Source: Patescibacteria group bacterium (GTDB taxonomy: Bacteria > Patescibacteriota > Patescibacteriia > UBA10025). From it: a stretch of 50,396 nt of DNA. The stretch is from assembly GCA_042570925.1 (NCBI GenBank), contig JBHPFX010000001.1, positions 1 through 50,396 on the forward strand. Reading direction: 5' to 3'. Under the pieces are notes generated by a model. It searched no databases and was not told the origin of the DNA. It saw only the letters and a list, made by a program, of their open reading frames with translations. Below, one piece after another: positions 2,568-39,124 of the stretch. A program made the translations under genes and the position numbers. Position 1 is the stretch's first letter; every line of letters starts with the position of its first letter.

Positions 2568-2609
2568 ACTAACTACGTCTAAGTAATATTACCCTTGCAT
2601 TATATTGTT

Positions 2610-2645
2610 GCCGCTCTGGCACCATTTGGAGCGGCTTTTTATTTA
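2610..2645 (+). terminator. Intrinsic terminator
   Basis: Stem GCCGCTC / GAGCGGC is followed by TTTTTATTTATT. Confidence 0.6.
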
Positions 2646-2694
2646 TTATTGACTATTTTACTTATAGTGGTATTCTCATATATGCAATAAACAT

Positions 2695-3078
2695 ATGAGC
2701 CAGCCAAAGTACTACATTATTGCATCAGGTCCGGTCATTATAGAAAATGGCAAGGTTTTGCTGAATAAACACGGTGATGACAATATATGGAAATTCCCTG
2801 GCGGCAAGGTAGAGGATTTCTCAGAGTTGTCGCTGGAAGAGCATGCAAAGCGGGAAGTTAAAGAGGAAATGGGGATTCAAATAGAAATTCAAAGGCCTCT
2901 CAAGCCGATGATGATCGAAAAGGACGGAAAGTTGGTTGTGTTAATTCACTACTTAGCGACGCGAGTAGGTGAAATATCTCCTGGGCCGGATATTGAAGAA
3001 TGGAAGTGGATATCGGTGAACGAATTGCCAGATGACTGTGCGCCGAATATAAAGCCTGTTTTAGAAAGTATTAAATAA
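2695..3078 (+). CDS. Nudix hydrolase
   Basis: 127 aa with Nudix box GGKVEDFSELSLEEHAKREVKEEMGI. Confidence 0.85.
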   Translation: MSQPKYYIIASGPVIIENGKVLLNKHGDDNIWKFPGGKVEDFSELSLEEHAKREVKEEMGIQIEIQRPLKPMMIEKDGKLVVLIHYLATRVGEISPGPDIEEWKWISVNELPDDCAPNIKPVLESIK

Positions 3079-3638: not shown

Positions 3639-4919
3639 ATGCTGAAACAATCAGACAACGACGTTTATACAACTATTCAAAAAGAGCTCGAACGGCAAAG
3701 GAATGTTCTGGAGATGATTCCATCAGAGAATTTCACAAGCCTTGCCGTCATCGAAGCGCTTGGATCAGTTTTGACAAACAAATACTCAGAGGGCTATCCT
3801 GGCAAACGATACTATGGTGGGAATGAGTTTATAGACGATATTGAGACTCTAGCTATTGAGAGAGCAAAAAAGTTATTTGATGTCGAGCACGCGAATGTCC
3901 AGCCATATTCCGGTTCGCCGGCTAATCAGGCGGTGTATTTCGCGCTTCTTAAACCAGGAGACACGGTGCTTGGCATGGAGCTTGCGATGGGCGGCCATTT
4001 AACACACGGGTACAAATTAAACTTCTCCGGGAAGTATTATAACGCCATCTCATACGGGGTCGACCCAAAAACGCATTTACTGGATTATGATGTCATTCGG
4101 GAGATCGCAAAAAAAGAAAAGCCCAAGATGATTATTGCCGGAGCGACCGCATATCCCCGTGAGTTTGATTTTAAAAAGTTTGCTGAAATTGCCCGAGAGA
4201 TTGATGCATATTTCTTGGCAGATATTTCTCATATTACCGGTTTGATTATTGCAGGTGTTCATCAATCTCCATTTGATTATGCTGACGTCGTGATGACCAC
4301 TACACATAAGACTCTTCGCGGTCCGCGTGGCGCAATGATTTTAGTGCCAAAAAAAGCTGATCGTCTCCATGATCTCCATCATCCAAAATCAAAGAAAGAT
4401 CTCGGGCAACTCATCGATAGTGCAATTATTCCCGGTTTACAAGGTGGACCACACAATCATCAGACTGCTGCTATTGCTGTGTGTTTAGAAGAAGCAATGA
4501 AGCCCGAATTTAAGGAATATGGCAGGCAGATACAAAAGAACGCAAAAGTATTAGCTGAATCGCTTATAGCGAATGGTTTATCCCTCATCACAGGGGGGAC
4601 TGACAATCATTTGATTTTGGCGGACGTAACACCATTTGGAATCTCCGGTAAACAAGCGGAGGAATTACTTGATAAAGTCGGAATTACGGTAAATAAAAAC
4701 CTTATCCCATTCGATACGCGCAAACCAATGGATCCGTCTGGAATTCGTCTTGGCACTCCAGCTCTGACCACAAGAGGCTTTAATGAAGTTGAAATGAAGG
4801 TAATTGGCGAAATGATTGTAAAAGTGTTACAGAATTCCGATGACAACTCAATACAAGACGGAGTACGAGTAAAAGTGAAAGAATTGACTGACACACATCC
4901 ACTGTATTCTAATATATGA
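3639..4919 (+). CDS. glyA: Serine hydroxymethyltransferase
   Basis: 426 aa with typical SHMT sequence (IPSENF, GYPGKRYYGG, TTTHKTLRGPRG with the PLP lysine). Confidence 0.97.
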   Translation: MLKQSDNDVYTTIQKELERQRNVLEMIPSENFTSLAVIEALGSVLTNKYSEGYPGKRYYGGNEFIDDIETLAIERAKKLFDVEHANVQPYSGSPANQAVYFALLKPGDTVLGMELAMGGHLTHGYKLNFSGKYYNAISYGVDPKTHLLDYDVIREIAKKEKPKMIIAGATAYPREFDFKKFAEIAREIDAYFLADISHITGLIIAGVHQSPFDYADVVMTTTHKTLRGPRGAMILVPKKADRLHDLHHPKSKKDLGQLIDSAIIPGLQGGPHNHQTAAIAVCLEEAMKPEFKEYGRQIQKNAKVLAESLIANGLSLITGGTDNHLILADVTPFGISGKQAEELLDKVGITVNKNLIPFDTRKPMDPSGIRLGTPALTTRGFNEVEMKVIGEMIVKVLQNSDDNSIQDGVRVKVKELTDTHPLYSNI

Positions 4920-8899: not shown

Positions 8900-10120
8900 C
8901 TACCGACGCTGGTCCCGCAAAGCGGGATCAGCGTTTTTTTGTAGTATAAAAATCTCTCTTCCAACGATTTGGTCAGTGCGAAAGTAATGTAAAGACTTAT
9001 TTTCTCCCAATACCACTATCTGCAACGAAGTACCATTCAGGCATTTCTCTATATTGATATGTTGTTCTGATTCTTCTAGCTTAAAAAACGGGAGGGAGAT
9101 TACTGCTTTGCCTTGAGACTTCAAAATTCGTTCAAAAACAATAAATGTCTCATTATACAATAACTCAAGTTCAGCCATAATTCGGTGTAATTTTTCACTA
9201 CCAGGTTTTCGAAGTAACGGAGGGCCTAAATATGGCTCAGTAATTATTCCATCAACGCTTTCTTGATTAATTTCATCTGAAAGGGCTCGAATATCTTTCT
9301 GAAACAGTTTTACAGTGTTTTTTATTTCCTTTTGTTTGGCATACCAGTCAAGATTTCTTTGTGTATCCTTAATTGCCTTGTCACTTATGTCGGACCCGGT
9401 CAAATTTTGATATCCTGCCCGCAATGCCTCCTGCAAAATAGTTCCTGTTCCACAGAAGGGATCAATGATTACTGAATCCTTTTTTTGTTCAGCAAGGTTG
9501 ATCATTATTTGAGCAACTTTTGGCGGAAGAATTCCACGCTTAGTGTCTCGGGCAGGACGTCCATAATCCCGGTTACTGTATTCTTCAAAATCTTGGACGG
9601 TGAGCGTTTTTCCTATGTGTAATTTTTTTCCATCATTTAGAATAATTATTTCAGCACCTCGTTCAATGAGATGATTTTTCGTTACGACAACGCTTGAAAG
9701 AATACCCGTATCATTGATTACGAAACGAGCCGTAAATGCATTTGCATGTAACTCTTTTTTCGCTTGCATGCCAAGTCGTCTAATTTGTTTAATGAGCTGA
9801 TTATCTTTTTTTCCATAGATGCTTGCGCCAAAAGTAATTTTATCTTCACTCTGTGCAAAATATTTTCCCAAAAGATTATTAATATCAAAAATTGACGGCA
9901 ATTCACTAAACTGAATCGATTGATCTATTACAGCAATCTTCACGGTCCCCCCAAGACGAAATTGAAGTTCCGGAGCACGAAGCTCTTCAAGCGGGTCTAT
10001 CAGGAAGTAGTTGCCACCATCTTTGAATGTCCCCGAAACAACCGAATGAAGCTCGGCCAATGAGAGTTCGGGATGACTTCCTGGAATGAAGCAATAGTGG
10101 GGCATAAAGGTAGTATACAC
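8900..10120 (-). CDS. SAM-dependent RNA methyltransferase (UPF0020 / Trm11-RlmL-like fold)
   Basis: 406 aa with SAM motif I DPFCGTGTILQEA and a motif IV-like ITEPYLGPP. The track start is GTG; ATG at 10105 (MPHYCFIPG) is a likely alternative. Confidence 0.75.
   Translation of the reverse strand: MYTTFMPHYCFIPGSHPELSLAELHSVVSGTFKDGGNYFLIDPLEELRAPELQFRLGGTVKIAVIDQSIQFSELPSIFDINNLLGKYFAQSEDKITFGASIYGKKDNQLIKQIRRLGMQAKKELHANAFTARFVINDTGILSSVVVTKNHLIERGAEIIILNDGKKLHIGKTLTVQDFEEYSNRDYGRPARDTKRGILPPKVAQIMINLAEQKKDSVIIDPFCGTGTILQEALRAGYQNLTGSDISDKAIKDTQRNLDWYAKQKEIKNTVKLFQKDIRALSDEINQESVDGIITEPYLGPPLLRKPGSEKLHRIMAELELLYNETFIVFERILKSQGKAVISLPFFKLEESEQHINIEKCLNGTSLQIVVLGENKSLHYFRTDQIVGREIFILQKNADPALRDQRR
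8905..8939 (+). terminator. Strong intrinsic terminator on the plus strand
   Basis: 13-bp stem ACGCTGGTCCCGC-aaa-GCGGGATCAGCGT is followed by T7. It lies inside the last codons of the minus-strand ORF 8900-10120. Confidence 0.7.
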
Positions 10121-10244
10121 GTAAGATAGGGTTCTCTTGCAATAGACAGGATCCTATGATAGGCTAAGAATCGAAACATGAGTTAATAGACTCGGAAAGC
10201 GGTCTCTTTTTTTATCCATTCTCATCTAATATTAGCCAAAAATC

Positions 10245-10742
10245 ATGCAGCATTACGAGATGCTATTTATCCTCTCTTCAAGGCAGACACAAGAGGAATT
10301 AGAGTCAAAAATCCAAGAGATTTTTCAGATTGTTGAAAAACTGGGCGGTAATCTAACGAAAAAGGAAGTTTTCTCAAAACAGCGCTTTGCCTATCCTATA
10401 AAGAAAGAAGAGCAGGGTGTCTACATCATCAGCGAGTTTGACATTGATCCGGAAAAACTTCAACCGATTGATCAAGAATTGAGACATACGCCCGGCATTC
10501 TTAGACATCAAATAGTCAGCGTGCAGGTAAAATCACCCGAACGCATAGAAGCTGAACGAGCCTTGAAAGAAAAGGTTGCTACCAAACGAGCAACTGATGC
10601 CCAAAAGAAAAAGCAAGAAGAGATTTCTAAAGAAGTTAAGAAAGCTGAAGAGCTGCCAGAAAAGAAAGATGAGAAGATTAACGTCGATGAACTCGATAAA
10701 AAACTCGAGGAATTACTCGATGACCCATTATTAAAAGAATAA
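10245..10742 (+). CDS. rpsF: 30S ribosomal protein S6 with long Lys/Glu-rich C-terminal extension
   Basis: The N-terminus MQHYEMLFIL...RFAYPI is S6-like, and the gene sits in the classic rpsF-ssb-rpsR order. Confidence 0.9.
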   Translation: MQHYEMLFILSSRQTQEELESKIQEIFQIVEKLGGNLTKKEVFSKQRFAYPIKKEEQGVYIISEFDIDPEKLQPIDQELRHTPGILRHQIVSVQVKSPERIEAERALKEKVATKRATDAQKKKQEEISKEVKKAEELPEKKDEKINVDELDKKLEELLDDPLLKE

Positions 10743-10746
10743 TTTT

Positions 10747-11175
10747 ATGGCAATGGATCTTAACAAAGTTATGATGATCGGGAATGTCACGCGGGACCCT
10801 GAAACGCGTACTACTCCCTCTGGCATTAACGTTGCCTCTTTTGGCGTTGCAACTAATTTGACCTGGAAGGACAAAGAAGGACAACAGCAGCGACGAGCCG
10901 AGTTTCACAATATCGTTGCCTGGCGGAAACTTTCAGACATCGTTTCCCAATATGTAAAAAAAGGAAGCCGAATTTACGTAGAAGGTAAATTGCAGACTCG
11001 TTCATGGGACGATCAAAGCGGAACCAAGCGATATCGAACTGAGATAGTTGCTGATAATGTTATTCTTCTCGATAAAAAGGGTGATAATGTGGGGTCCCAA
11101 GCCGGGGGCACTCCTGAAGCTCCGCCGGATCAGGGCAAAGAGCCGGAAATTAACGTTGAAGATATTCCATTTTAA
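10747..11175 (+). CDS. ssb: Single-stranded DNA-binding protein
   Basis: 142 aa with an OB-fold start (LNKVMMIGNVTRDPE...FHNIVAW) and an acidic C-terminal tip ending DIPF. Confidence 0.95.
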   Translation: MAMDLNKVMMIGNVTRDPETRTTPSGINVASFGVATNLTWKDKEGQQQRRAEFHNIVAWRKLSDIVSQYVKKGSRIYVEGKLQTRSWDDQSGTKRYRTEIVADNVILLDKKGDNVGSQAGGTPEAPPDQGKEPEINVEDIPF

Positions 11176-11178
11176 CCT

Positions 11179-11409
11179 ATGATGAGACAACGTAAACAAC
11201 AAGAGCGATCCAAGATTTGTCATTTTTGCGTTAATGCAATTACGGACATTGATTATAAAGATGCCCGATCGATGAGGAAATTTCTTTCTTCGTACGCCAA
11301 GATTCTTCCTCGTAAAAAGACTGGCACCTGTGCGAAACACCAACGCAAGCTTGCCCGGGCGGTAAAACGTGCACGTGAGCTATCGTTAGTTCCATTTACA
11401 ACTCGGTAA
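11179..11409 (+). CDS. rpsR: 30S ribosomal protein S18
   Basis: 76 aa with CHFC...IDYKD...LSSY.KILPRKKTG...KHQRKLARAVKRAR. Confidence 0.95.
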   Translation: MMRQRKQQERSKICHFCVNAITDIDYKDARSMRKFLSSYAKILPRKKTGTCAKHQRKLARAVKRARELSLVPFTTR

Positions 11410-11417
11410 GATCGCAT

Positions 11418-11978
11418 ATGGCGACAACGAGCAATGTTAGACAGGGCTTTTACCTCGTATACAACGGTGAGCCCTATGTTGTGGTAGGGACTGACTTCAT
11501 GAAAAAGGCACAAAGTACCGGCATGTTACGCACAACTATACGCAATATGTTAAACGGGAAGGTGCTCAAAATAACGCTTCGAAGCGGGGAGACAGTTGAG
11601 GCAGCAGATATTTCGAGAGGAAAGGCTACGTATCTGTATGAGGACGAGACAAATTGTCATTTCATGGATTCCAAAAGTTTCGAACAGTTTTTTCTTTCCA
11701 TAGAATCCATTGGTGATAAAAAGGATTTCCTGAAAGAAAATCAGGAAGTCGATGTATTGCTTTATAATGATAATCCGGTTGCTATCGATTTGCCGAAAAA
11801 ACTTGTTTTAACGGTAACGGAAACTGAGCCGGCCACTCGGGGTGATACGGCTCAGGGATCTGTCATGAAGCCTGCAACACTTGAAACGGGTATGGAAATT
11901 CAGGTTCCGCTTTTTGTGAAGAAGGACGACAAAATACGCATCAACACCGATACAAGGCAGTACGTTGAGCGCGCGTAA
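11418..11978 (+). CDS. efp: Elongation factor P
   Basis: 186 aa with an EF-P three-domain-like sequence (FMD..SFEQ, KPATLETG..IQVP.F). Confidence 0.93.
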   Translation: MATTSNVRQGFYLVYNGEPYVVVGTDFMKKAQSTGMLRTTIRNMLNGKVLKITLRSGETVEAADISRGKATYLYEDETNCHFMDSKSFEQFFLSIESIGDKKDFLKENQEVDVLLYNDNPVAIDLPKKLVLTVTETEPATRGDTAQGSVMKPATLETGMEIQVPLFVKKDDKIRINTDTRQYVERA

Positions 11979-13449: not shown

Positions 13450-15165
13450 CTAAACTTCGATAACCACTGGCATCACCATTGGACGCCGCTGTGTCTTCGT
13501 AAAAAGAAACTGACCGATCTGGTCCCGAATCTTGTTTGTGATATATCGCTTATCAGCTTTTGCACGAGGCTCCTGATCTTTCAGAATATTTTTCACTTTC
13601 TTTTTTACCTGATCGACCAGCTGCTTACTATGCTTCATATACACAAATCCCCGAGATATAATGTCTGGTTCACCGACAATGTTTCCAGTTTCATCATCGA
13701 TATTCACGATAATGACAAACATTCCTTCATCAGCAAGCTGCTGCCGATCCCGGAGCACGACGTTTGATACATCTCCGATGCCTAAGCCGTCAACAAACAC
13801 ATAGTCAGATGGGACTTTCTTAGGAAGTATTCTTGGTTTTCCCTGGTTATGCTCGAGAATTGATCCGTTATCAAGTATAAAGATATTATCTTTTGGGAAC
13901 CCATGACGCACGACAAGTTTTTCAGCTTCTTTATGGAAAAAATGGTTCGCATATACTGGCAGGAAATACGTCGGCTTTACTTGTTTTACTACTTCTACAA
14001 TATCCATCGGATCACTGTGTCCGCCAGAATGGACATCTACAATGTCGCTGTGAATCACATTATCTGAAAGCCGGTAGAGATTGTCTTTAAGACGCTGAAT
14101 GCTTCGTTCATTTCCCGGAATGACTGACGATGAGAAAATGATCGTGTCAGGCTTCTTGATTTTAATAAAACGATGATTGCCATTGATGATTCTCGAGAGC
14201 ACGGCATTTGATTCACCCTGAGCACCGGTGCATATGACGACAACTCTGTTATCCGGGTATTTATTAACCTTATCAACGGTGATCAATAAATCCTGTTTTA
14301 CTTTAATATACCCAAGCTCCATCGCTACTTTCACATTCACCTTCATACTGTAGCCATCGAGAGCAACTTTTTTCCCGATCTTACTGGCGTATTCAAGAAT
14401 AAGCTTTATTCTTTCAACTTGGGAGGAGAATGTGCCGATGATCACTCGTCCCGGTGCCTCACGAATGAGTCGATTTAAATTCTGATGCATGACTCTTTCA
14501 GGAACACGCTCTTTTTTTTCTACAGATCCCAGACTTTCAAGCATAAGAAACGTTGGCTTGGGAAGTTTCGATAGGGAATGATACGATAATGGGCTTCTTA
14601 CGATTGGATCTCTTTCATATGTCCAATCACCAGGATGAATAACTGTTCCTTTTGGAGTTTCCAGTATTACACCCATTGCATCCATGATGGAGTGATCAAC
14701 GGGGAAGAAACGAATATTAAACCTTCCAAGTCGGTATGAATTCTGTACTGATTTGACGGTAATAATTTTTAAATGTTTCGCAGACCCCTTCTTATAATCT
14801 TCCGCTCTGTTTTTTATCAAAGCAAGTGTGAGCGGACGGCCGATAATCATAGGGTTGCCAAGCTTTTCGAGCAAGATAGGTGCTGCACCGATATGATCGA
14901 GATGACCGTGACTAAACACAACTCCTCGGATATTCTTTTCTTTTCCCCGAAGATAGGAAATATTCGGGATAATATAATCAACTCCCGGCATATCTTCTTC
15001 TGGAAACTGCAGGCCCATGTCGATAATCACAATATCTTTCCCATACTCAAAAATTGTCATGTTGCGACCGACTTCTTCCTGGCCTCCTAAAGGGATGATT
15101 TTTAATGCTTCACCGCCTTGGATTTGTTGTCCCTGACCGTGCTTCTTTCTATTTCTTTTTGTCAT
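13450..15165 (-). CDS. rnj: Ribonuclease J (metallo-beta-lactamase / beta-CASP)
   Basis: 571 aa with HGHLDHIG and the typical RNase J layout and length. Confidence 0.93.
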   Translation of the reverse strand: MTKRNRKKHGQGQQIQGGEALKIIPLGGQEEVGRNMTIFEYGKDIVIIDMGLQFPEEDMPGVDYIIPNISYLRGKEKNIRGVVFSHGHLDHIGAAPILLEKLGNPMIIGRPLTLALIKNRAEDYKKGSAKHLKIITVKSVQNSYRLGRFNIRFFPVDHSIMDAMGVILETPKGTVIHPGDWTYERDPIVRSPLSYHSLSKLPKPTFLMLESLGSVEKKERVPERVMHQNLNRLIREAPGRVIIGTFSSQVERIKLILEYASKIGKKVALDGYSMKVNVKVAMELGYIKVKQDLLITVDKVNKYPDNRVVVICTGAQGESNAVLSRIINGNHRFIKIKKPDTIIFSSSVIPGNERSIQRLKDNLYRLSDNVIHSDIVDVHSGGHSDPMDIVEVVKQVKPTYFLPVYANHFFHKEAEKLVVRHGFPKDNIFILDNGSILEHNQGKPRILPKKVPSDYVFVDGLGIGDVSNVVLRDRQQLADEGMFVIIVNIDDETGNIVGEPDIISRGFVYMKHSKQLVDQVKKKVKNILKDQEPRAKADKRYITNKIRDQIGQFLFTKTQRRPMVMPVVIEV

Positions 15166-15182
15166 ATTTTCAATAATTATTT

Positions 15183-15269
15183 TGGTGCCCTGGGGGAGAG
15201 TCGAACTCCCACGACCTTGCGGTCATAGCGCCCTGAACGCTACGTGTCTGCCAATTCCACCACCAGGGC
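15183..15269 (-). tRNA. tRNA-Leu (anticodon CAG), CCA encoded
   Basis: Hand-folded cloverleaf: acceptor GCCCTGG/CCAGGGC, anticodon arm TAGCG-TTCAGGG-CGCTA, long variable arm (GACC/GGTC), T-arm GGGAG-TTCGACT-CTCCC. Confidence 0.9.
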
Positions 15270-24336: not shown

Positions 24337-24912
24337 ATGAAGATGGGGAACTCTCGAAGTAACGGTGGTCGCACACGTAGGAATAGAATGATTGGTGTGG
24401 CGATCGTCTTGGCCTTCGCACTATTATTGTGGAATTTACCACATGGTGAAGGGCCGTCGAGGTACGAAGAACTACAGAATGCTGGTATTCTCGGTGAGCA
24501 TCAACTGGCGCAAATGGAACCAGGCGGCTCAATCTCGGGCTCTTTCTTTCTTGCCAGCGGTTCGTTCGAGAGGACCAGAGACATCACGTTTTTCTGGAAC
24601 TACCAGGGCTCCGAGCTTGTATCCACGATGCTCCCGTACGATCGGCTTCGCTTCATCATCGATGATGAGTGCAACGAGCCAGTCGTGGAATTTGTCTTCA
24701 AACAAGAGTGGCTGGACCATCGGAACGACCTTGCGAACGACAACCACTTTTCAGCCGATGAGCTGATTAATGTCAATGATATCATCGGTGACGGTCACTC
24801 CTGGAGACCTCTCATCTTTGCACGTGTGAGACTCTCGTCCAAAGTGATGGAAGATGAAGTGTATCTTCCGAAGTCACTGGACGGATCAGATACTATAATC
24901 GCACCGATCTAA
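24337..24912 (+). CDS. Hypothetical secreted or membrane-anchored protein (191 aa), GC-rich orphan
   Basis: SD GGGAGG (the second ATG at 24343 has better spacing). The N-terminus has Arg-rich residues followed by a TM (IGVAIVLAFALLLW). Sample lines give 43-48% GC. No known motif. Confidence 0.6.
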   Translation: MKMGNSRSNGGRTRRNRMIGVAIVLAFALLLWNLPHGEGPSRYEELQNAGILGEHQLAQMEPGGSISGSFFLASGSFERTRDITFFWNYQGSELVSTMLPYDRLRFIIDDECNEPVVEFVFKQEWLDHRNDLANDNHFSADELINVNDIIGDGHSWRPLIFARVRLSSKVMEDEVYLPKSLDGSDTIIAPI

Positions 24913-32974: not shown

Positions 32975-33040
32975 TAGGCGCATTATTTAGTTCCACAATT
33001 GCATCATGTAAGATGTAATTTGTGGTATACTGACCTCGTT

Positions 33041-34762
33041 ATGCTAACGAAATACCCAACTACCATTGCTTCAATTATTGTTGGTTGTGTTGTGTTAATT
33101 ACTGGGGTAATAGTTGTTTTTACCGTACAAGCTGAGAGTCCTCCAGTAACTCCTGATGCCGTACTCATAACACCTACAGCAGGAAGCACAGTAAGTGGAA
33201 CCCTTTCTTTTGAAGCGAATTTGGGTGAAATATCACCGCCACCTGATACGGTGGTCTCATTTACCATATACAGATTAACCGGCGGTGGGGCACCTGAATA
33301 CAGCCGGTATTGTTTTTTATCTCCTCTTGCAACAAATATCGTAGGAACTCGTTGGCGAGCCGACAACGTTGACACGATGAAAGTATCTGGAAATTGCTCA
33401 GATTCATTGGTGGGCTGGGGAACTGTTTATACACCCGAAAATGGAACATACCGCTTTGGTGTTTGGATAGATGGAGAGGAGTATGTTACCGAAGACAGTA
33501 TTACCATTGATAATGGAGTGGCGCAGGTTGATCCGGAAGGACCGGGTGTTAATATAAATATAAACCGGAATACTAATACCAATCAAAATACTAACACCGG
33601 TAATACTAATTTTGAAACTAACCAAAATTTTAATACAAACGAAGGCAGTGAAGTTAACGCCAATGAAGATTCTTCATCACCGGATCCTGTTCTTAATATC
33701 AATGAGGGGGGAGATAGTCCTCCAGGTGATGATGACGAAGGAGCACAGCAGCCCAGTATTTCTTTTGTAAGTCCCAATGATGGAGCTAAAGTTCAGGGCA
33801 CAGTGAATATCGTTGCATCAGTGGCAAATGTGACGCAGTCTGAAATTCAGGAAGTCGTATTCTCAGTAGAAAGCCGCACTGTCTGGTATACCATGGGACA
33901 AGCAACCCAAGGTTCTTCTGGCGACAATTGGACACATCAATGGAATACCACATCACTACCTGATGGAACAGTGTTTGGGGTGATGCGATTGTATCTTTCT
34001 AATGGTACTATTTACGGTACAGAGGTACGCGCATTTACGATTGCTAATACATCTGATGGATCAGCAGATGACACTCAAACGAATACAAATTCCGGAGAAT
34101 CGAATACTAATTCTATAGTCTCAAATACAAATGAAGGAGATGATTCATCTGGTGCAAACACTAATTATGACTCGAGTCCTGCACCACCGACGGGACGTCC
34201 CCCAAAAGATTCTGATAACGATGGAATAGCGGATGTAGAGGAAAAGAAAAGAGGAACGGATCCAAATCGTCCCGGTGCCATCGTACCACCAAGAAGAACG
34301 TATACGTCGCGGCCATCAGCTCACCCTCTTACATCTGGAGTAGAGGATGATACGCTACGTGTAACAAAAGTAACTGGTCCCGGAATTATTTCATCCGGAG
34401 AAGAAACGGAAAATTCATATAAGTTCTATGGAACAGGCATACCAGCGGAATTTCTTTCCTTGTTTATCTATAGTGAAAATCCCATTGTTATTCCAGTCCA
34501 AACGAATGCACTTGGGTTATGGCAATCTGATGCGAATTTTCTGCTTGAAATCGGTGATCATAGCGCCTATGTTGCTTTACTTAATAATAATGGAGATGTA
34601 GAACAGAAGAGCGCTCCGTTTGCATTTACCATCGATCCTGATGCTCTTAAGAAATCGCAGGGAGGATCATTTCCCTGGGTCTGGGTGATTGTTGCAGTCG
34701 TTGTTATAGGAGGAGGAGTTGTAGGGTTTCAAATGATGGGCAAAGGCGAGGAAAAGAAATAA
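33041..34762 (+). CDS. Surface protein: N-terminal TM/signal, Ig-like regions, Asn/Thr-rich linkers, one TSP3-like repeat, C-terminal TM anchor
   Basis: ATG at 33041 (the track start 32999 is TTG). It has NTNTNQNTNTGNTN linkers, DSDNDGIADVEEKKRGTDPNRPG and a C-terminal FPWVWVIVAVVVIGGGVVGF. Confidence 0.75.
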   Translation: MLTKYPTTIASIIVGCVVLITGVIVVFTVQAESPPVTPDAVLITPTAGSTVSGTLSFEANLGEISPPPDTVVSFTIYRLTGGGAPEYSRYCFLSPLATNIVGTRWRADNVDTMKVSGNCSDSLVGWGTVYTPENGTYRFGVWIDGEEYVTEDSITIDNGVAQVDPEGPGVNININRNTNTNQNTNTGNTNFETNQNFNTNEGSEVNANEDSSSPDPVLNINEGGDSPPGDDDEGAQQPSISFVSPNDGAKVQGTVNIVASVANVTQSEIQEVVFSVESRTVWYTMGQATQGSSGDNWTHQWNTTSLPDGTVFGVMRLYLSNGTIYGTEVRAFTIANTSDGSADDTQTNTNSGESNTNSIVSNTNEGDDSSGANTNYDSSPAPPTGRPPKDSDNDGIADVEEKKRGTDPNRPGAIVPPRRTYTSRPSAHPLTSGVEDDTLRVTKVTGPGIISSGEETENSYKFYGTGIPAEFLSLFIYSENPIVIPVQTNALGLWQSDANFLLEIGDHSAYVALLNNNGDVEQKSAPFAFTIDPDALKKSQGGSFPWVWVIVAVVVIGGGVVGFQMMGKGEEKK

Positions 34763-34804
34763 ATAAATTTTAAACAGGTATCCTCCAGTAAAAACGGGGG
34801 TTTC

Positions 34805-34833
34805 TTGACGTACCTATTGAATATTGATAAAAT
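34805..34833 (+). promoter_or_regulatory. Sigma70-like promoter upstream of the helicase gene
   Basis: TTGACG-17 nt-TAAAAT. SD GGGGAG lies before ATG 34878. Confidence 0.5.
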
Positions 34834-34877
34834 CGTTCAATTAGCTCTTTTACATTCACAGAAGGGGAGATTAGGTA

Positions 34878-37235
34878 ATGACACACACAGCATGTCAGTT
34901 TCGGAATGTTGTGGTTGTGGCTGATGGTCCAAATATATTCACAGAACAGCTGACGGAAGCGGGAATCGTATTCCGGATCGTGGAGAGTGTTAACCCTGAT
35001 ACAGTTAAAACACCTCCGGATCTTGTCCTGACGGTCAACAAAGGCCGCAGGACCGCTGAAGACATCAAGTCTCAGTATCCCGATGCTCAGGTAATTGTCG
35101 TCCAGGGTGGCAGGAAGCAATATGCCCCTCGTATTACCGTGGTTCACGGTAAGGGCAAGGACAATTACGATGTTCTGTGGTATCAGACCTGGGATCAATT
35201 TATCGAAATCATCAGCAAACCACAACCAAGACGGCCGAAGGCATTCGTTCCTTCGGGAGAACCAGATCAATACTCACTCATTGCGAACATTGATCCATGC
35301 CCACCTCTTTCACCAGAAGTGGAAGCTACGTACGACCTGATGCTTCGAATTTCAGAGCATTATCTCACGTGGTATCTTCAGTGGCTTTCTGAGATTGGGG
35401 GCATGATCTTCAAATGTTCGTTCAATTTCCCGAAACGCAGGAAGCGGATTGCCCGAGTAACACTCCCAAATAACGGTCAGTTCACCCATTGGGGACTGCC
35501 AGTGTTTTCAGAAGAGGCAGAGGCCATTTTCCTGGACGACAGAGATAATAAGCACAATGCTGTTGTCGAGTCAGTCCGGGATGAGGAAATCACTTTTGTT
35601 TTTACTGAATCACTTCCCAGACAAACAGCGAATAACCTTGTTTCGGTGAAGCTAAAAGTAGCCAATGTCCTTCAGGAAATGCAGCGAGAAGTATGCTGGC
35701 AAGCGATGAGTCATCCAGAGGAGTGTTCGCGTCCTCTGAAGGTTATGGCGGGACAGTGTCCGAATGATGGAGTGAAAAAGTTGACAACACTTCATCTGAC
35801 ACTGGAGCAGGCGCGAAATCTAAGACAAGACGAATCACAAACGCATGCGCTTGCTGTGAGCGTGGACAATCGGTCAATCAATCTCATTCATGGCCCAGCG
35901 GGTACCGGTAAAACCTGTGATACAGCCTGGATTGTAAAGCAGTTTGCAGCTCACGGAAAAGTCACACTACTAGTCTCGCATTCAAACCAGGGGCTCGATA
36001 CACTTCTAGATTTTGTGGCACGAAGCATCGAACGCGAGGATGTAATTTTCCGCCTTGGGAATAATGCAAAGAACGTAACTTCCCAAGGATCGCGATTCCA
36101 TCGTTCGGAAAGATTCTCGCGAGCAGAAGTTTCGCTTCATGACGACGAACAACGAGAAGACAAGCATCTCTCAAAAGATGAAGTACACAGGATTAACGAG
36201 CTTCTCGGAGATGGTCAGTCCGTGATCCTCGCATGCACGATGGCCTCGTTTCTTGTTGATCGGACACTCGTGAAGCTGCTTACCAAGATGGGAGTAGAAA
36301 TCGATGTGACAATCATCGATGAAGCTTCTCGTGGGTATCTCTTTGAAGTCCTTCCAGTCGTCAATGCGACAAAAGAACGGGTTGTCTTCATTGGAGATCC
36401 GGATCAGCTTGGTAATCTCGAACTGTCTCCTGATGTACGTAGATATCTCAGAGCACGGGACTTTACCGACGAACAGATTGCGCTCTTCGGCAACGGGTGG
36501 TTTAACACTGTCGTCAAGCAGGAGCTCTTTCCTGTGGATCTGCTCATGATCAATCGACGTTCGCTGCCTGTGGTGTGCCGTCTTGTGAGCAATTTGTTCT
36601 ATGACGACAGGGTCATTCCGGGACGATTCGATGCGAAAGATCCGGGTCAGTTCACGTTCATAGACACGAAAGATGCCCAACACAACGAAGATAAGCAGAT
36701 CGGGACATCGTTTTGCAACAGGAAAGAAGCGAACATCGTTGTAAGGCTAATTGTTTGGCTCCTCTCCCGAGGTGTGCGGTGGGAAGACATCGCGATTATC
36801 ACACCATACCGCGCCCAGATTATTCTTATCCGCAACAAGCTGCGTGGAGAGATTCTATTCAACAAACGGCTTGCGAAACTGCGGAAGAGATTATTGGGCG
36901 ACAGGCAAGTCGAGGGTGAGGCTGCCATTGCACGTGCGATTCAGGATCAGGTCGAGCAAATCTGCCTGAAGATCGTCAACACCGTTGACGCATTTCAGGG
37001 CAGTCAGCGCAAGATAATCGTGTGCAGCATGGTGACTTCAAACACGGACGGTCGCATCGGCTTTAACCGAAATGTCAATCGTTTGCGTGTCGCATTCTCA
37101 AGGGCGGCGGACCATCTGTATCTCATTGCCAACTCCCGTACGTTCCTGGAATCTGATTTCCCAGAAGTACATCCCATCTTCGAGCAGTCGATTGCATATG
37201 CTCGCGAACTGGGGACGTATCAGGAGGTTACATAA
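34878..37235 (+). CDS. Upf1-like (SF1B, AAA_11/AAA_12-type) helicase with ~330-aa unassigned N-terminal region
   Basis: 785 aa with Walker A LIHGPAGTGKT, Walker B IIDEASR, FIGDPDQL, VDAFQGSQRKIIVCSMVTSN and RLRVAFSRAADHLYLI. Residues 1-110 look like a flavodoxin/REC-like alpha-beta module (VVVVAD...PDLVL). A sample line gives ~53% GC. Confidence 0.85.
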   Translation: MTHTACQFRNVVVVADGPNIFTEQLTEAGIVFRIVESVNPDTVKTPPDLVLTVNKGRRTAEDIKSQYPDAQVIVVQGGRKQYAPRITVVHGKGKDNYDVLWYQTWDQFIEIISKPQPRRPKAFVPSGEPDQYSLIANIDPCPPLSPEVEATYDLMLRISEHYLTWYLQWLSEIGGMIFKCSFNFPKRRKRIARVTLPNNGQFTHWGLPVFSEEAEAIFLDDRDNKHNAVVESVRDEEITFVFTESLPRQTANNLVSVKLKVANVLQEMQREVCWQAMSHPEECSRPLKVMAGQCPNDGVKKLTTLHLTLEQARNLRQDESQTHALAVSVDNRSINLIHGPAGTGKTCDTAWIVKQFAAHGKVTLLVSHSNQGLDTLLDFVARSIEREDVIFRLGNNAKNVTSQGSRFHRSERFSRAEVSLHDDEQREDKHLSKDEVHRINELLGDGQSVILACTMASFLVDRTLVKLLTKMGVEIDVTIIDEASRGYLFEVLPVVNATKERVVFIGDPDQLGNLELSPDVRRYLRARDFTDEQIALFGNGWFNTVVKQELFPVDLLMINRRSLPVVCRLVSNLFYDDRVIPGRFDAKDPGQFTFIDTKDAQHNEDKQIGTSFCNRKEANIVVRLIVWLLSRGVRWEDIAIITPYRAQIILIRNKLRGEILFNKRLAKLRKRLLGDRQVEGEAAIARAIQDQVEQICLKIVNTVDAFQGSQRKIIVCSMVTSNTDGRIGFNRNVNRLRVAFSRAADHLYLIANSRTFLESDFPEVHPIFEQSIAYARELGTYQEVT

Positions 37236-37261
37236 GGAGGGAAAGCATAGAAATAAAATAA

Positions 37262-37299
37262 AGGGCGGGGACCTTACGGTCGCCGCCCCTTTTTCTTTG
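37262..37299 (+). terminator. Intrinsic terminator after the helicase gene
   Basis: GC-rich imperfect hairpin AGGGCGGGGACC-ttac-GGTCGCCGCCCCT followed by TTTTCTTT. Confidence 0.7.
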
Positions 37300-37446
37300 G
37301 TCCGGCATAAGCCGGTCCGGTAGAGCCCAACCCTCTTCCCACTTGGAATCGTGGATAATTGAAGATCTACCCAGATCCTGACTCATTCATTATCGAGTCA
37401 AGCCAGGAGTCATAGGGCATGAGAAGTCCCATGACCTGAACTCTCC

Positions 37447-37692
37447 TTAAAAGGGCCCCACCCCAGGCCTGGTGGCTTTCTTATTGTCGTACCGTAGCCA
37501 TTTTCGACGCCGAAGGCTTGGACAATAAGGAAAACACTCAACGCTCTTCATATATCGAATCACTTGGTCGAGCGATCCGAAGAAGAACGTCAACTGCCTG
37601 CCCGCGGCGCGCAATGATGCCACGCACCTAAGCAGGTTTGGCCTGGGGAAGGAGATGGACATTACTCCACCGGAGGATGAATGAAAGAACAT
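37447..37692 (-). CDS. Possible small basic protein (81 aa), convergent with the helicase
   Basis: A strong SD GGAGGGAGGA lies 5 nt before the ATG, inside the GC-rich block. The sequence is unremarkable and the region is rich in hairpins, so it could instead be non-coding. Confidence 0.3.
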   Translation of the reverse strand: MFFHSSSGGVMSISFPRPNLLRCVASLRAAGRQLTFFFGSLDQVIRYMKSVECFPYCPSLRRRKWLRYDNKKATRPGVGPF

Positions 37693-37810
37693 AAGCGTCC
37701 TCCCTCCTGGACGAAAGTATCTTTGCGCAGATTTGAATATAAGTCAAGTAAAACGCTTTTCTTTTTATGAATAGAATGCTATGTTATACTGCTCATGGAC
37801 GTGCTCCAAG

Positions 37811-37900
37811 GGAGAGGTCGCATAGTGGTCTAGTGCGTCTGCTTGGAGAGCAGATAGGCCTTAACGGGCCTCGGGAGTTCGAATCTCCCCCTCTCCGCCA
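37811..37900 (+). tRNA. tRNA-Ser (anticodon GGA), CCA encoded
   Basis: Hand-folded: acceptor GGAGAGG/CCTCTCC, anticodon arm TCTGC-TTGGAGA-GCAGA, long variable arm, T-arm GGGAG-TTCGAAT-CTCCC. Confidence 0.92.
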
Positions 37901-37942
37901 TGAATAATATGGGTGTTATTAAGGATTTGAAGTTGCGAGCAT

Positions 37943-38500
37943 ATGGACACAAAATATTTACACATTTGGGAGCTCGCAAAGCCATATTTAGCGCAAGGAA
38001 AAAGAAAAGATTTTGTATTACATACACAAGGAGTGATACAGGGAATGGAGATTTTGCTTAGAGAGGAGGGGGGCGACGAAACAATACTTCTTCCTGCGGC
38101 AATTTTGCATGATACCGGTTGGTCAAAAGTCCCAGTAAAGTTGCAAAGGAGTGATGACAAAGAGGATAAACATAAAGCGCTCAAACTGCATATACAATAC
38201 GCCTTACCAATTATTACAGAAGTTCTGGAGAAAGCAGAGTATATAGACAACAAGATTAAGCAAGTTGTTGATATTGTTAAAGATCATCAGTTCGTAGATC
38301 CAAAAGAATTATCAAAGCGGTTACTTATTGATGCTGATGCAATGTCCGATGTCTTTCGAGAGCAGTTTTATGGTGATGTAAAAGCATACAATACAACTCC
38401 GCAAAAGCTCTATGAATTTCGAAAGAAAAACACGTTTTATACAAAAACTGCTGAGAAAGTTTTTAATGAAGAATTAGAAAAGAGGAGACAAGAAATATAA
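37943..38500 (+). CDS. HD-domain phosphohydrolase
   Basis: 185 aa with H...HD signature (VLHTQGV ... AAILHDTGW) and a later D in the helical bundle. Confidence 0.8.
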   Translation: MDTKYLHIWELAKPYLAQGKRKDFVLHTQGVIQGMEILLREEGGDETILLPAAILHDTGWSKVPVKLQRSDDKEDKHKALKLHIQYALPIITEVLEKAEYIDNKIKQVVDIVKDHQFVDPKELSKRLLIDADAMSDVFREQFYGDVKAYNTTPQKLYEFRKKNTFYTKTAEKVFNEELEKRRQEI

Positions 38501-38521: not shown

Positions 38522-39124
38522 ATGGCATCTTCAAATACTGAATTGATACACAAGTACTTGTCCCACAATAACATTATTAATATTGAAAAAAGCAAGCAGT
38601 TAGCAATGGTAGCTAATTTAGTTGCTCGAATTCCATTTGGGGAAGCCCGGACGATTAAAGAAGTATTAACAACCAAGAAAGTTGGAACCTGTTCAGGCAA
38701 ACATGAAGTTTTAAAAGCATGTCTTGATGAATTAGAGATTTCAAACAGCAATGTTTTTTGTACATTTCGGTGGAATGACCAAAAAATTCAATTCCCGAAG
38801 CATTTACACAATATGTTGATGGGAGTAACTTGGGACCACGGACATAATTTCTTAAAAGTTTTAAATTCGGAAGGAAAGTATATTGAAGTGGACGTCACAA
38901 TTAATCCAGGACTTGAGAAATACGGTTTTCAAGCATTTCCTGAAAATTGGGATGGTCTACAATCTACACCTCTTGCATTCGATAAAATAATTAAGAAATG
39001 GGAAGGTGGAGATATTGCCTTCGAAAAAAAGAAGCTCATGAATTCACTCAGCCCTGAGCTTCAGGAGCATAGAAAAATATTTCTTTCTGAGTTATTTAAG
39101 TGGATAAAAAAAATAAATAAATAA
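38522..39124 (+). CDS. Transglutaminase-like (papain-fold Cys-His-Asp) protein
   Basis: 200 aa. GTCSGKHEVLKACLDELEI (Cys), WDHGHNFLKV (His) and YIEVDVT (Asp) sit in the spacing typical of the transglutaminase-like core. Confidence 0.55.
   Translation: MASSNTELIHKYLSHNNIINIEKSKQLAMVANLVARIPFGEARTIKEVLTTKKVGTCSGKHEVLKACLDELEISNSNVFCTFRWNDQKIQFPKHLHNMLMGVTWDHGHNFLKVLNSEGKYIEVDVTINPGLEKYGFQAFPENWDGLQSTPLAFDKIIKKWEGGDIAFEKKKLMNSLSPELQEHRKIFLSELFKWIKKINK

Follow-up and report, generated by a model that had tools for sequence, protein, structure and literature searches.

The helicase locus

The window, a stretch of 50,396 nucleotides from contig JBHPFX010000001.1 of a Patescibacteria group bacterium (assembly GCA_042570925.1), contains an intact open reading frame (ORF) of 785 residues. 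The encoded protein is an Upf1-like helicase of superfamily 1B (SF1B) with a previously undescribed N-terminal domain. The gene occupies a position in a backbone that runs groES-groEL … DUF4870-ppsA-(variable gene)-helicase-small convergent unit-tRNA-Ser(GGA)-variable genes-dnaG-rpoD. The block around it is probably a single-gene accessory cassette, swapped at a variable slot of this otherwise conserved housekeeping backbone. A literature search returned no paper on an Upf1-like helicase in Patescibacteria. The features of the locus are collected in Table 1, in which loci of relatives carry the labels (L001 and so on) used throughout.

The promoter-like site of the gene ends 44 nt 5' of the ATG, and the call leans mainly on this position because about four sites at the scan minimum (9/12) are expected by chance within the same 3.4 kb. 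Downstream, a hairpin of -22.6 kcal/mol on the forward strand and -24.8 kcal/mol on the reverse strand is common to the helicase and the small convergent unit, and equivalent hairpins are present in all relatives. A first-pass annotation of this DNA had proposed that the gene has its own promoter and terminator, and both signals, a 10/12 promoter match and a hairpin with a T-run, are found.

Table 1. Coordinates of features at the helicase locus (window positions unless a related locus is named).
Feature	Coordinates	Strand	Basis or remark
Promoter-like site, sigma-70-type, TTGACG-17-TAAAAT with upstream TG	34805..34833	+	10/12 positions match
Helicase Shine-Dalgarno GGGGAG	~34863-34868	+	upstream of ATG 34878
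Helicase gene, 785 aa	34878..37235	+	~24 full-length homologues, AAA_11/AAA_12, predicted structure
N-terminal α/β domain, aa 1-~135, predicted Rossmann/flavodoxin-like topology	34878..35282	+	AlphaFold of the domain alone, pLDDT 90.9
Stalk helices and 1B β-barrel, aa ~136-300	35283..35777	+	secondary structure; Foldseek to UPF1/IGHMBP2/SETX, 677-709 columns
RecA-like domain 1A, aa ~301-520	35778..36437	+	Walker A GPAGTGKT, Ia SHSNQGLD, II DEAS
RecA-like domain 2A, aa ~521-785	36438..37235	+	IV NRRS, V TVDAFQGSQRK, VI RLRVAFSRA
Bidirectional intrinsic terminator, GC hairpin between A-run and T-run	37263..37297	both	hairpin 37263-37288
Independent convergent unit, outside the helicase cassette	37298..37747	-	10 conserved copies including helicase-less L045, L048
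Unit promoter TTGACT-17-AAAGAT	37747-37719	-	sigma-70-like
Unit Shine-Dalgarno GGAGGGAGG	~37707	-	ATG at 37692
Unit ORF, 81 aa	37447-37692	-	then structured 3' part
Unit copies, L001	12389-12761 and 13162-13534
Unit copy, L004	12374-12738
Unit copy, L007	12322-12711
Unit copy, L012	8357-8729
Unit copy, L013	4065-4450
Unit copy, L014	8333-8761
Unit copy, L045	14281-14582
Unit copy, L048	~3768-4056
tRNA-Ser(GGA)	37811..37900	+	same tRNA in L001, L004, L007, L013, L014, L045, L048, L093

Architecture of the helicase

The motor core is that of an Upf1-like SF1B helicase. The motifs quoted in the first-pass annotation are all present, with GPAGTGKT at residues 339-346, IIDEASR at 479-485, GDPDQLGN at 506-513, VDAFQGSQRK at 703-712, and RLRVAFSRA at 735-743. 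Pfam families AAA_11 (residues 318-434, E 1.2e-15) and AAA_12 (residues 542-753, E 1.8e-32) both match above their cut-offs. The SF1 motif residues (Walker A, Walker B DEAS, Ia, III, IV, V, and VI) are invariant across the 24 helicase homologues that were aligned.

Every structural statement made here rests on predicted models. The AlphaFold model of the full-length helicase, built on 24 homologues, has a mean predicted local distance difference test score (pLDDT) of 89.5 and a predicted template modelling score (pTM) of 0.88. When searched with Foldseek against the PDB, it matches the cores of UPF1, IGHMBP2, SETX/Sen1, ZNFX1, and Dna2 with E-values of 1e-26 to 1e-30. For the UPF1 core 2gk7 (596 residues), the template modelling (TM) score is 0.76 normalised to 2gk7 over 677 alignment columns. 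Two long predicted helices (residues 146-174 and 264-290) and a predicted β-barrel (residues 190-259) align with the UPF1-like cores and are therefore assigned as the stalk and the 1B domain, and residues 224-397 align to profile positions 75-236 of TIGR00376. Domain 1A holds a partly disordered insertion resembling domain 1C (residues ~396-445).

These assignments narrow the part of the protein that is new. About 330 N-terminal residues had initially been left unassigned; residues ~146-300 of that region are the stalk and the 1B barrel, and the novelty is confined to residues 1-~135. This segment is, as far as predicted structures can tell, an orphan α/β domain that is new and confined to the present helicase family. 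A Foldseek search, the structural check suggested in the first-pass annotation, gives no match at E<=0.001 in the PDB or BFVD; the best matches, at E 0.026 (PDB) and 0.019 (BFVD), are to generic Rossmann, BRCT, or flavodoxin-like folds. With the domain profile, nothing is retrieved from PDB sequences, and a Pfam scan of the 24 members of its alignment is without significant match. Within the alignment, N54 and G77-G78 are invariant, and F21, L25, F82, D98, W105, and F108 are nearly so.

Known identities were considered for the N-terminal domain. A receiver (REC) or CheY-like fold had been suggested at first, but the phospho-acceptor Asp of that fold is replaced by the invariant Asn54 at the end of β3. 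In addition, D16 is not conserved, Pfam gives no match, and REC structures are reached only at E 0.06-0.11, which is not a significant fold match. The best Pfam match among the aligned members, to SLOG/LSDAT_prok, has E 0.059 in 1/24 members only and is taken as noise.

A search of 1.84 billion representative proteins with the N-terminal domain profile matched 50 clusters. In these, the domain nearly always lies at the extreme N-terminus of proteins of 750-1000 residues. The longest family members, among 10 longer or otherwise different members scanned, have no additional Pfam domain. From this distribution and from the longer members without extra domains, it follows that the architecture is constant and exclusive to the family.

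The ratio of nonsynonymous to synonymous substitution rates (dN/dS) within an allele class is 0.10-0.14 in all four domains, and 0.11-0.14 in the N-terminal domain. The gene is thus under strong purifying selection and, judged from these substitution patterns, still functional.

A conserved slot with exchangeable content

About 24 full-length homologues of the helicase were found, with 28-49% identity over 98-100% of the length; those that are named come from Kerfeldbacteria, Parcubacteria, and Patescibacteria, and the nearest database helicase is 49% identical to that of the window. Seven loci share the same gene order (the window, L001, L004, L007, L012, L013, and L014). The helicases of the six carrier loci other than the window are 42-50% identical to the window's, and one of these loci, L001, comes from a complete 1.31-Mb Kerfeldbacteria genome. 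In the relatives, the space between ppsA and the helicase is empty or holds a Big_7 surface protein or an ABC transporter. In a scan of GTDB genomes based on the helicase alignment, the patterns were not specific enough, and only 2 family members came out among 30 loci.

The tRNA-Ser start had been placed correctly at 37811 by the first-pass annotation. This tRNA stands in the shared gene order of the relatives and is thus an ancestral landmark of the backbone, not an integration scar.

A distant subfamily (28-34% identity) has the helicase between polA and ddl in five loci; in this lineage, the helicase always adjoins polA and holA. In L125 (4990-7659), the gene is inverted relative to the conserved polA-ddl flanks, as compared with L011 and L127, which is consistent with cassette-like behaviour in the distant lineage too. 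In L016 (Candidatus Falkowbacteria), the homologue is split into ORFs of 257 and 605 residues (8983-9756 and 9870-11687), which may reflect a frameshift, decay into a pseudogene, or an error in sequencing. The contig of L013 and L015 (CAZVMV010000006.1) is labelled 'uncultured Gammaproteobacteria bacterium'. In gene content and synteny it agrees with the Patescibacteria loci, and the label is probably wrong.

Synteny alone would suggest a core gene. A scan anchored on ppsA, independent of the helicase itself, found three loci that have the backbone and lack the gene: L045, L048, and L093, in each of which tblastn at E<=1e-3 finds no helicase in the 11-22 kb of contig covered. L045, which comes from Ga0075987_110, has ppsA, a surface protein of 574 residues, 887 bp without a helicase, and then tRNA-Ser, so that both boundaries named in the synteny comparison suggested earlier (surface-protein gene and tRNA-Ser) are in place around an empty slot. 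L048 has ppsA, 760 bp, tRNA-Ser, dnaG, and rpoD; L093 has ppsA and 1.5 kb before tRNA-Ser. In the ppsA tree, the sister of L045 is L012 and that of L048 is L001, with 85% ppsA identity in each pair. Since two helicase-less loci are sisters of carriers, the gene has been gained, lost, and replaced within the clade.

The divergence of the helicase is also discordant with that of its flanks. L007 and L014 are 90.4% identical in ppsA and 43.1% identical in the helicase. Their DNA is 79% identical through DUF4870, ppsA, and the ABC gene; similarity ends at the last base before the helicase and restarts at tRNA-Ser. L007 and L013 have flanks as diverged as those of L007 and L014, and helicases that are 76% identical. 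In the window clade, ppsA is ~80% identical in every pair, whereas the helicases of L004 and L012 are 78% identical and the window's is 48-50% identical to either. The L004/L012 comparison also gives a smaller proportion of synonymous differences (pS) for the helicase (0.55) than for ppsA (0.78).

Together, flank discordance and absences overturn the impression of a core gene. Orthologues at the same position in related genomes had been named in advance as grounds for abandoning the accessory view. They are indeed there by synteny, yet their discordant identities and patchy occurrence support the view, also put forward in the first-pass annotation, that the helicase is an accessory (non-core) gene of the clade. 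On sequence comparison, it has been laterally exchanged.

The same observations bear on the alternative that the gene encodes a housekeeping helicase peculiar to the lineage, with a task in replication, repair, transcription termination, or RNA decay, and is inherited vertically and evolves fast, with an intrinsic GC excess. Such a gene would be expected at one position in the seven loci near dnaG-rpoD, constantly beside polA and holA in the other lineage, under strong purifying selection, and with a GC content that tracks the host's, all of which is seen. It would not readily be missing from three loci, two of them sisters of carriers, nor evolve at such uneven rates over equally diverged flanks (76% for L007/L013 against 43% for L007/L014). 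The helicase pS below that of ppsA in L004/L012 and the flipped orientation in the polA-ddl slot of L125 also disagree with vertical descent. A housekeeping helicase is thus considered unlikely.

The preferred reading, a swapped accessory cassette, would work as follows. Among related Patescibacteria, the slot would gain a helicase, lose it, or receive it again as a deeply divergent allele, most likely by homologous recombination through the conserved flanks. The allele in the window would be one that is mismatched to its host's relatives.

Nucleotide composition

The guanine plus cytosine (GC) content of the helicase is 49.0%, and that of the block 34805-37715 is 49.1%, against 42.2% in the remaining window. 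The gene is the window's highest-GC stretch of 2.36 kb (z about 3.5). GC at third codon positions (GC3) is 0.506, compared with 0.382±0.054 in 34 other ORFs (z 2.3), one short ORF being higher. Both GC and GC3 of the helicase thus differ from the rest of the window.

The first-pass annotation had described a sharper jump. The rise is real, at about 7 points and not about 18, and a hand count of 53% for 35041-35100 was right; the flanking values of 32-33% were too low, ppsA having 41.5% and the SpoU/trmH-like gene 37.6%. The block is GC-rich to 37715 as described, with the difference that its tail (37296-37715) is the separate convergent unit, which helicase-less relatives have as well.

GC3 is in excess only where the host is low in GC, as in the window (z 2.3) and in L001 (z 5.5); the excess is absent from the helicases of 50%-GC hosts and of the polA-ddl lineage. 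Helicase GC follows host GC, from 39.7% in a 33% host up to 53% in 50% hosts. The higher GC of the window allele fits a GC-richer donor within the same clade, and the compositional anomaly as a whole fits exchange between relatives that differ in GC.

Atypical composition beside a tRNA gene could also point to a mobile element or prophage at tRNA-Ser, of which the gene would be a remnant or cargo, with a helicase serving the element's own replication. A weak match of the helicase core, and of the core only, to phrog_25411 (function unknown) would agree. The locus has no integrase ORF, no repeats, and no other element genes, however, and the helicase lies upstream of the 5' end of the tRNA, not at its 3' end. 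The conserved unit parts the tRNA from the helicase and stays when the helicase is absent. Among 600 candidate stretches from IMG/VR, no relative was confirmed, and the N-terminal domain is without a PHROG or BFVD match. A mobile element is therefore very improbable. The related idea of a tRNA-targeted genomic island was rejected for want of an integrase and flanking repeats, and because tRNA-Ser and the unit are found in helicase-less relatives. Neither does the initial picture of a foreign block beside a tRNA survive, since orthologues fill the same slot in seven loci and the tRNA adjacency is ancestral.

The window has another compositional outlier, an ORF of 191 residues at 24337-24912 (+) with the top GC3 of the window (0.573) and a GC of 49.8%. 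It has no match in Pfam or PADLOC.

The convergent small unit

A small unit on the reverse strand separates the helicase from tRNA-Ser. All 10 copies, eight in the window clade and one each in L045 and L048, have a promoter of the type TTGAC[AT]-N16-17-TAAnAT, a GGAGG Shine-Dalgarno, a start codon, a terminator, and ~100 nt of extra hairpins. The ORF is 59-94 residues long among the 10 copies; its N-terminus is hydrophobic, and it contains a P-x-LL…GRQ-x-A motif. In L001, the unit is tandemly duplicated; the 5' two-thirds of the copies are nearly identical and the 3' ends have diverged.

The unit may encode a small protein, act as a structured RNA, or do both. Its RNA folds with z -3.9 to -5.5 against dinucleotide shuffles on the minus strand in 6/6 loci. 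By eye, alignments show a unit core that is ~88-92% identical in close pairs, where helicase DNA is 75-78% identical; the core is more conserved in nucleotides than the neighbouring genes. Over the whole ORF, the substitutions in two close pairs are without third-position excess, and in the conserved block of L007/L013 the differences, in an alignment read by eye, are mostly synonymous. RNAalifold on the 10 copies gives almost no consensus structure from a poor alignment. Rfam, run on the whole window, on 34600-38100, and on the relatives, lists tRNAs only, with no known family in the GC-rich tail.

The helicase and the unit could in principle form a two-gene system, with a small membrane protein or an RNA as the partner. 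The unit is directly downstream and convergent, and shares the terminator, in all seven carrier loci, and in L009, L011, and L016 the helicase is likewise followed by a small convergent ORF. The similarity of these distant-lineage ORFs to the unit is marginal, however. Helicase-less L045 and L048 have the unit too, complete with its terminator; it is duplicated in L001, and keeps with tRNA-Ser and not with the helicase. A unit that persists without the helicase belongs with tRNA-Ser and not with the cassette; a two-gene system is very unlikely and is rejected on this ground.

Comparison with known systems

The nearest description of the helicase is a Patescibacteria-restricted family of Upf1-like helicases with a novel N-terminal domain. 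The eukaryotic Upf1-like SF1B helicases (UPF1, IGHMBP2, SETX/Sen1, ZNFX1, and the helicase part of Dna2) are alike in having two RecA domains, the full set of motifs, a stalk, and a 1B barrel. Identity to them is only 16-19%, and the present protein, a bacterial one, occurs in just a few Patescibacteria lineages. It also lacks a CH zinc-knuckle, R3H, nuclease, or any other accessory domain that is known, and has the orphan α/β domain instead. Against the IGHMBP2 equivalog TIGR00376, the helicase scores 141.2 bits, below the cut-off of 348.9. Members of the Upf1-like family translocate 5'->3' on single-stranded nucleic acid, and by analogy the same action may be expected here.

Among bacterial defence systems, the closest is Mokosh (MkoA/MkoB in type I; MkoC in type II), which has the same COG1112/Upf1 core and is likewise encoded by accessory genes. 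Mokosh is defined by a helicase plus a phospholipase D (PLD) nuclease, with or without a kinase (10.1101/2022.05.11.491447). The PLD is fused in type II or encoded next door in type I, and MkoA of type I has a Ser/Thr kinase domain; the present helicase is without any of these. A PLD was sought in the helicase, in 10 longer or otherwise different family members, and in 10 neighbouring proteins, and none was found. The N-terminal 317 residues do not align to MkoA, whose profile aligns from position 617. Nhi is similar in that one polypeptide combines an SF1 helicase with an accessory domain placed N-terminal to it. Its model matches only 35-40 residues at Walker A (E 8.5e-4, 16 bits), and the N-terminal domain here has no nuclease fold or motif.

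The helicase might nevertheless be a divergent member of Mokosh type I or II or of Nhi, and its PADLOC matches are the reason to consider it: MkoA (PDLC03920) at 1.3e-54, with residues 318-774 against profile positions 617-1096 of 1112, MkoC at 5.8e-19, and Nhi at 8.5e-4. These matches are limited to the shared Upf1-like core, or to the Walker A region for Nhi. Without a PLD nuclease, a Ser/Thr kinase, or a nuclease N-terminal domain in the protein or its neighbours, the published definition of Mokosh (10.1101/2022.05.11.491447) does not apply, and membership of either system is hardly credible. The Nhi-like or Mokosh-like architecture envisaged by the first-pass annotation is accordingly not borne out, and its PADLOC check gives no whole-protein match to any system, the core-only match to MkoA being the best.

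The behaviour of the locus also has a parallel. In enterobacterial pan-genomes, variable hotspots between core genes that lack an integrase hold defence genes. The present locus resembles them in its fixed slot, core flanks, presence and absence, and occupants that are unrelated or divergent in close relatives, and in the SIR2-like gene found in the adjoining slot of L004. It differs in that the slot is small (0-2 genes) and usually holds the same gene family as divergent alleles.

Possible role

The cassette is predicted to encode an ATP-driven Upf1-like SF1B helicase or translocase, in which two RecA domains, a stalk, and a 1B barrel would form the motor core and the ~135-residue domain found only in this family would precede it. 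Its most likely role, put forward tentatively, is in nucleic-acid-level conflict with phage or other mobile DNA or RNA. The motor would then move 5'->3' on the invader's single-stranded nucleic acid or on its replication or transcription intermediates. The N-terminal domain would be a sensor, a regulator, or a docking module, with no fused nuclease.

A more specific form of this idea, which is possible and somewhat more speculative still, is a Patescibacteria-specific conflict system made of the helicase only. The N-terminal domain would sense or dock an invader or a host factor, and the nuclease-free motor would strip or unwind phage replication or transcription intermediates. Ancient allele classes would be shuffled at fixed hotspots in an arms race.

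Several observations lean towards defence. The Upf1-like class is well known from eukaryotic RNA surveillance and antiviral proteins; this link, together with the patchy, hotspot-like behaviour of the gene, makes an immune role plausible. That the best PADLOC match of the protein is to the helicase core of MkoA is a slight pointer in the same direction. In L004, a standalone SIR2-like gene (13688-14890, +) directly follows tRNA-Ser; the protein passes the cut-off of Pfam SIR2_2, hits several PADLOC SIR2 models (best E 9e-12), and bears a faint resemblance to AbiH. This gene hints that the tRNA-Ser neighbourhood can hold defence genes, and gives the defence role slight further support.

Other observations weigh against the cassette and its proposed role. 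None of the 10 neighbouring proteins matches PADLOC, and the surroundings consist of housekeeping genes and do not form a classical defence island. The locus has no effector domain and no conserved partner gene, and the helicase as a whole protein matches no PADLOC system. Retention in 7/10 backbone loci makes the gene more stable than many defence genes, although this fraction is biased, since the helicase itself served to find the seven carriers. The helicase could lie elsewhere in the genomes of L045, L048, and L093, as absence covers 11-22 kb of each. The GC excess could have another cause. With no close relative of the window in the databases and a nearest helicase that is 49% identical, the acquisition event in the window cannot be dated, bounded, or mapped to breakpoints. 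A non-immune accessory role (repair, recombination, or RNA turnover) is nearly as likely as the conflict role, being only somewhat less so.

Patescibacteria (also called the candidate phyla radiation, CPR) have tiny genomes from which most accessory DNA has been discarded. To our knowledge, descriptions of recognised defence systems in them are few, and next to nothing has been reported on how they handle phages or foreign nucleic acid. A gene that appears functional, is swapped, bears an orphan domain, and is kept in such genomes is a concrete candidate defence gene. Its N-terminal domain would be a new unknown at the level of the fold on the helicase class of UPF1, ZNFX1, MOV10, and Mokosh. 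Should the protein prove to be only a helper in repair or RNA turnover, the locus would still document how alleles are exchanged in cassette fashion at a core-gene slot of reduced genomes.

Neighbouring genes and other features

The gene upstream of the helicase (32999-34762, +) is predicted to encode a surface protein that contains a Big_7 domain and a TSP3 repeat and has hydrophobic segments at both termini. The copies in the window, L004, and L045 are only 43-49% identical, though ppsA is ~81% identical, and L012 has none. The surface protein is a second fast-evolving, variably present tenant of the helicase slot.

At 15183-15269 (-), ARAGORN calls a tRNA-Leu(CAG) that the Rfam tRNA model does not list at its gathering threshold. 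A small GIY-YIG (YhbQ-like) ORF lies just 5' of tRNA-Ser in L001 (13863-14114), L045 (~14700-14990), and L093 (~2600-3050); the window has none.

A second slot lies between tRNA-Ser and dnaG. In the window, it holds an HD-domain protein (37943-38500, +, 36% GC) and an ORF of 200 residues without a family match (38522-39124, +, 34% GC), both below the window-average GC. The metagenomic contigs of L012 and L014 stop at or just before tRNA-Ser, 486 and 641 bp past the helicase, and these assembly breaks would fit strain-level variability beyond the tRNA. The ORF of 200 residues is conserved, with a 48% identical counterpart immediately upstream of dnaG in L013; otherwise, the content of this slot is different in each relative.

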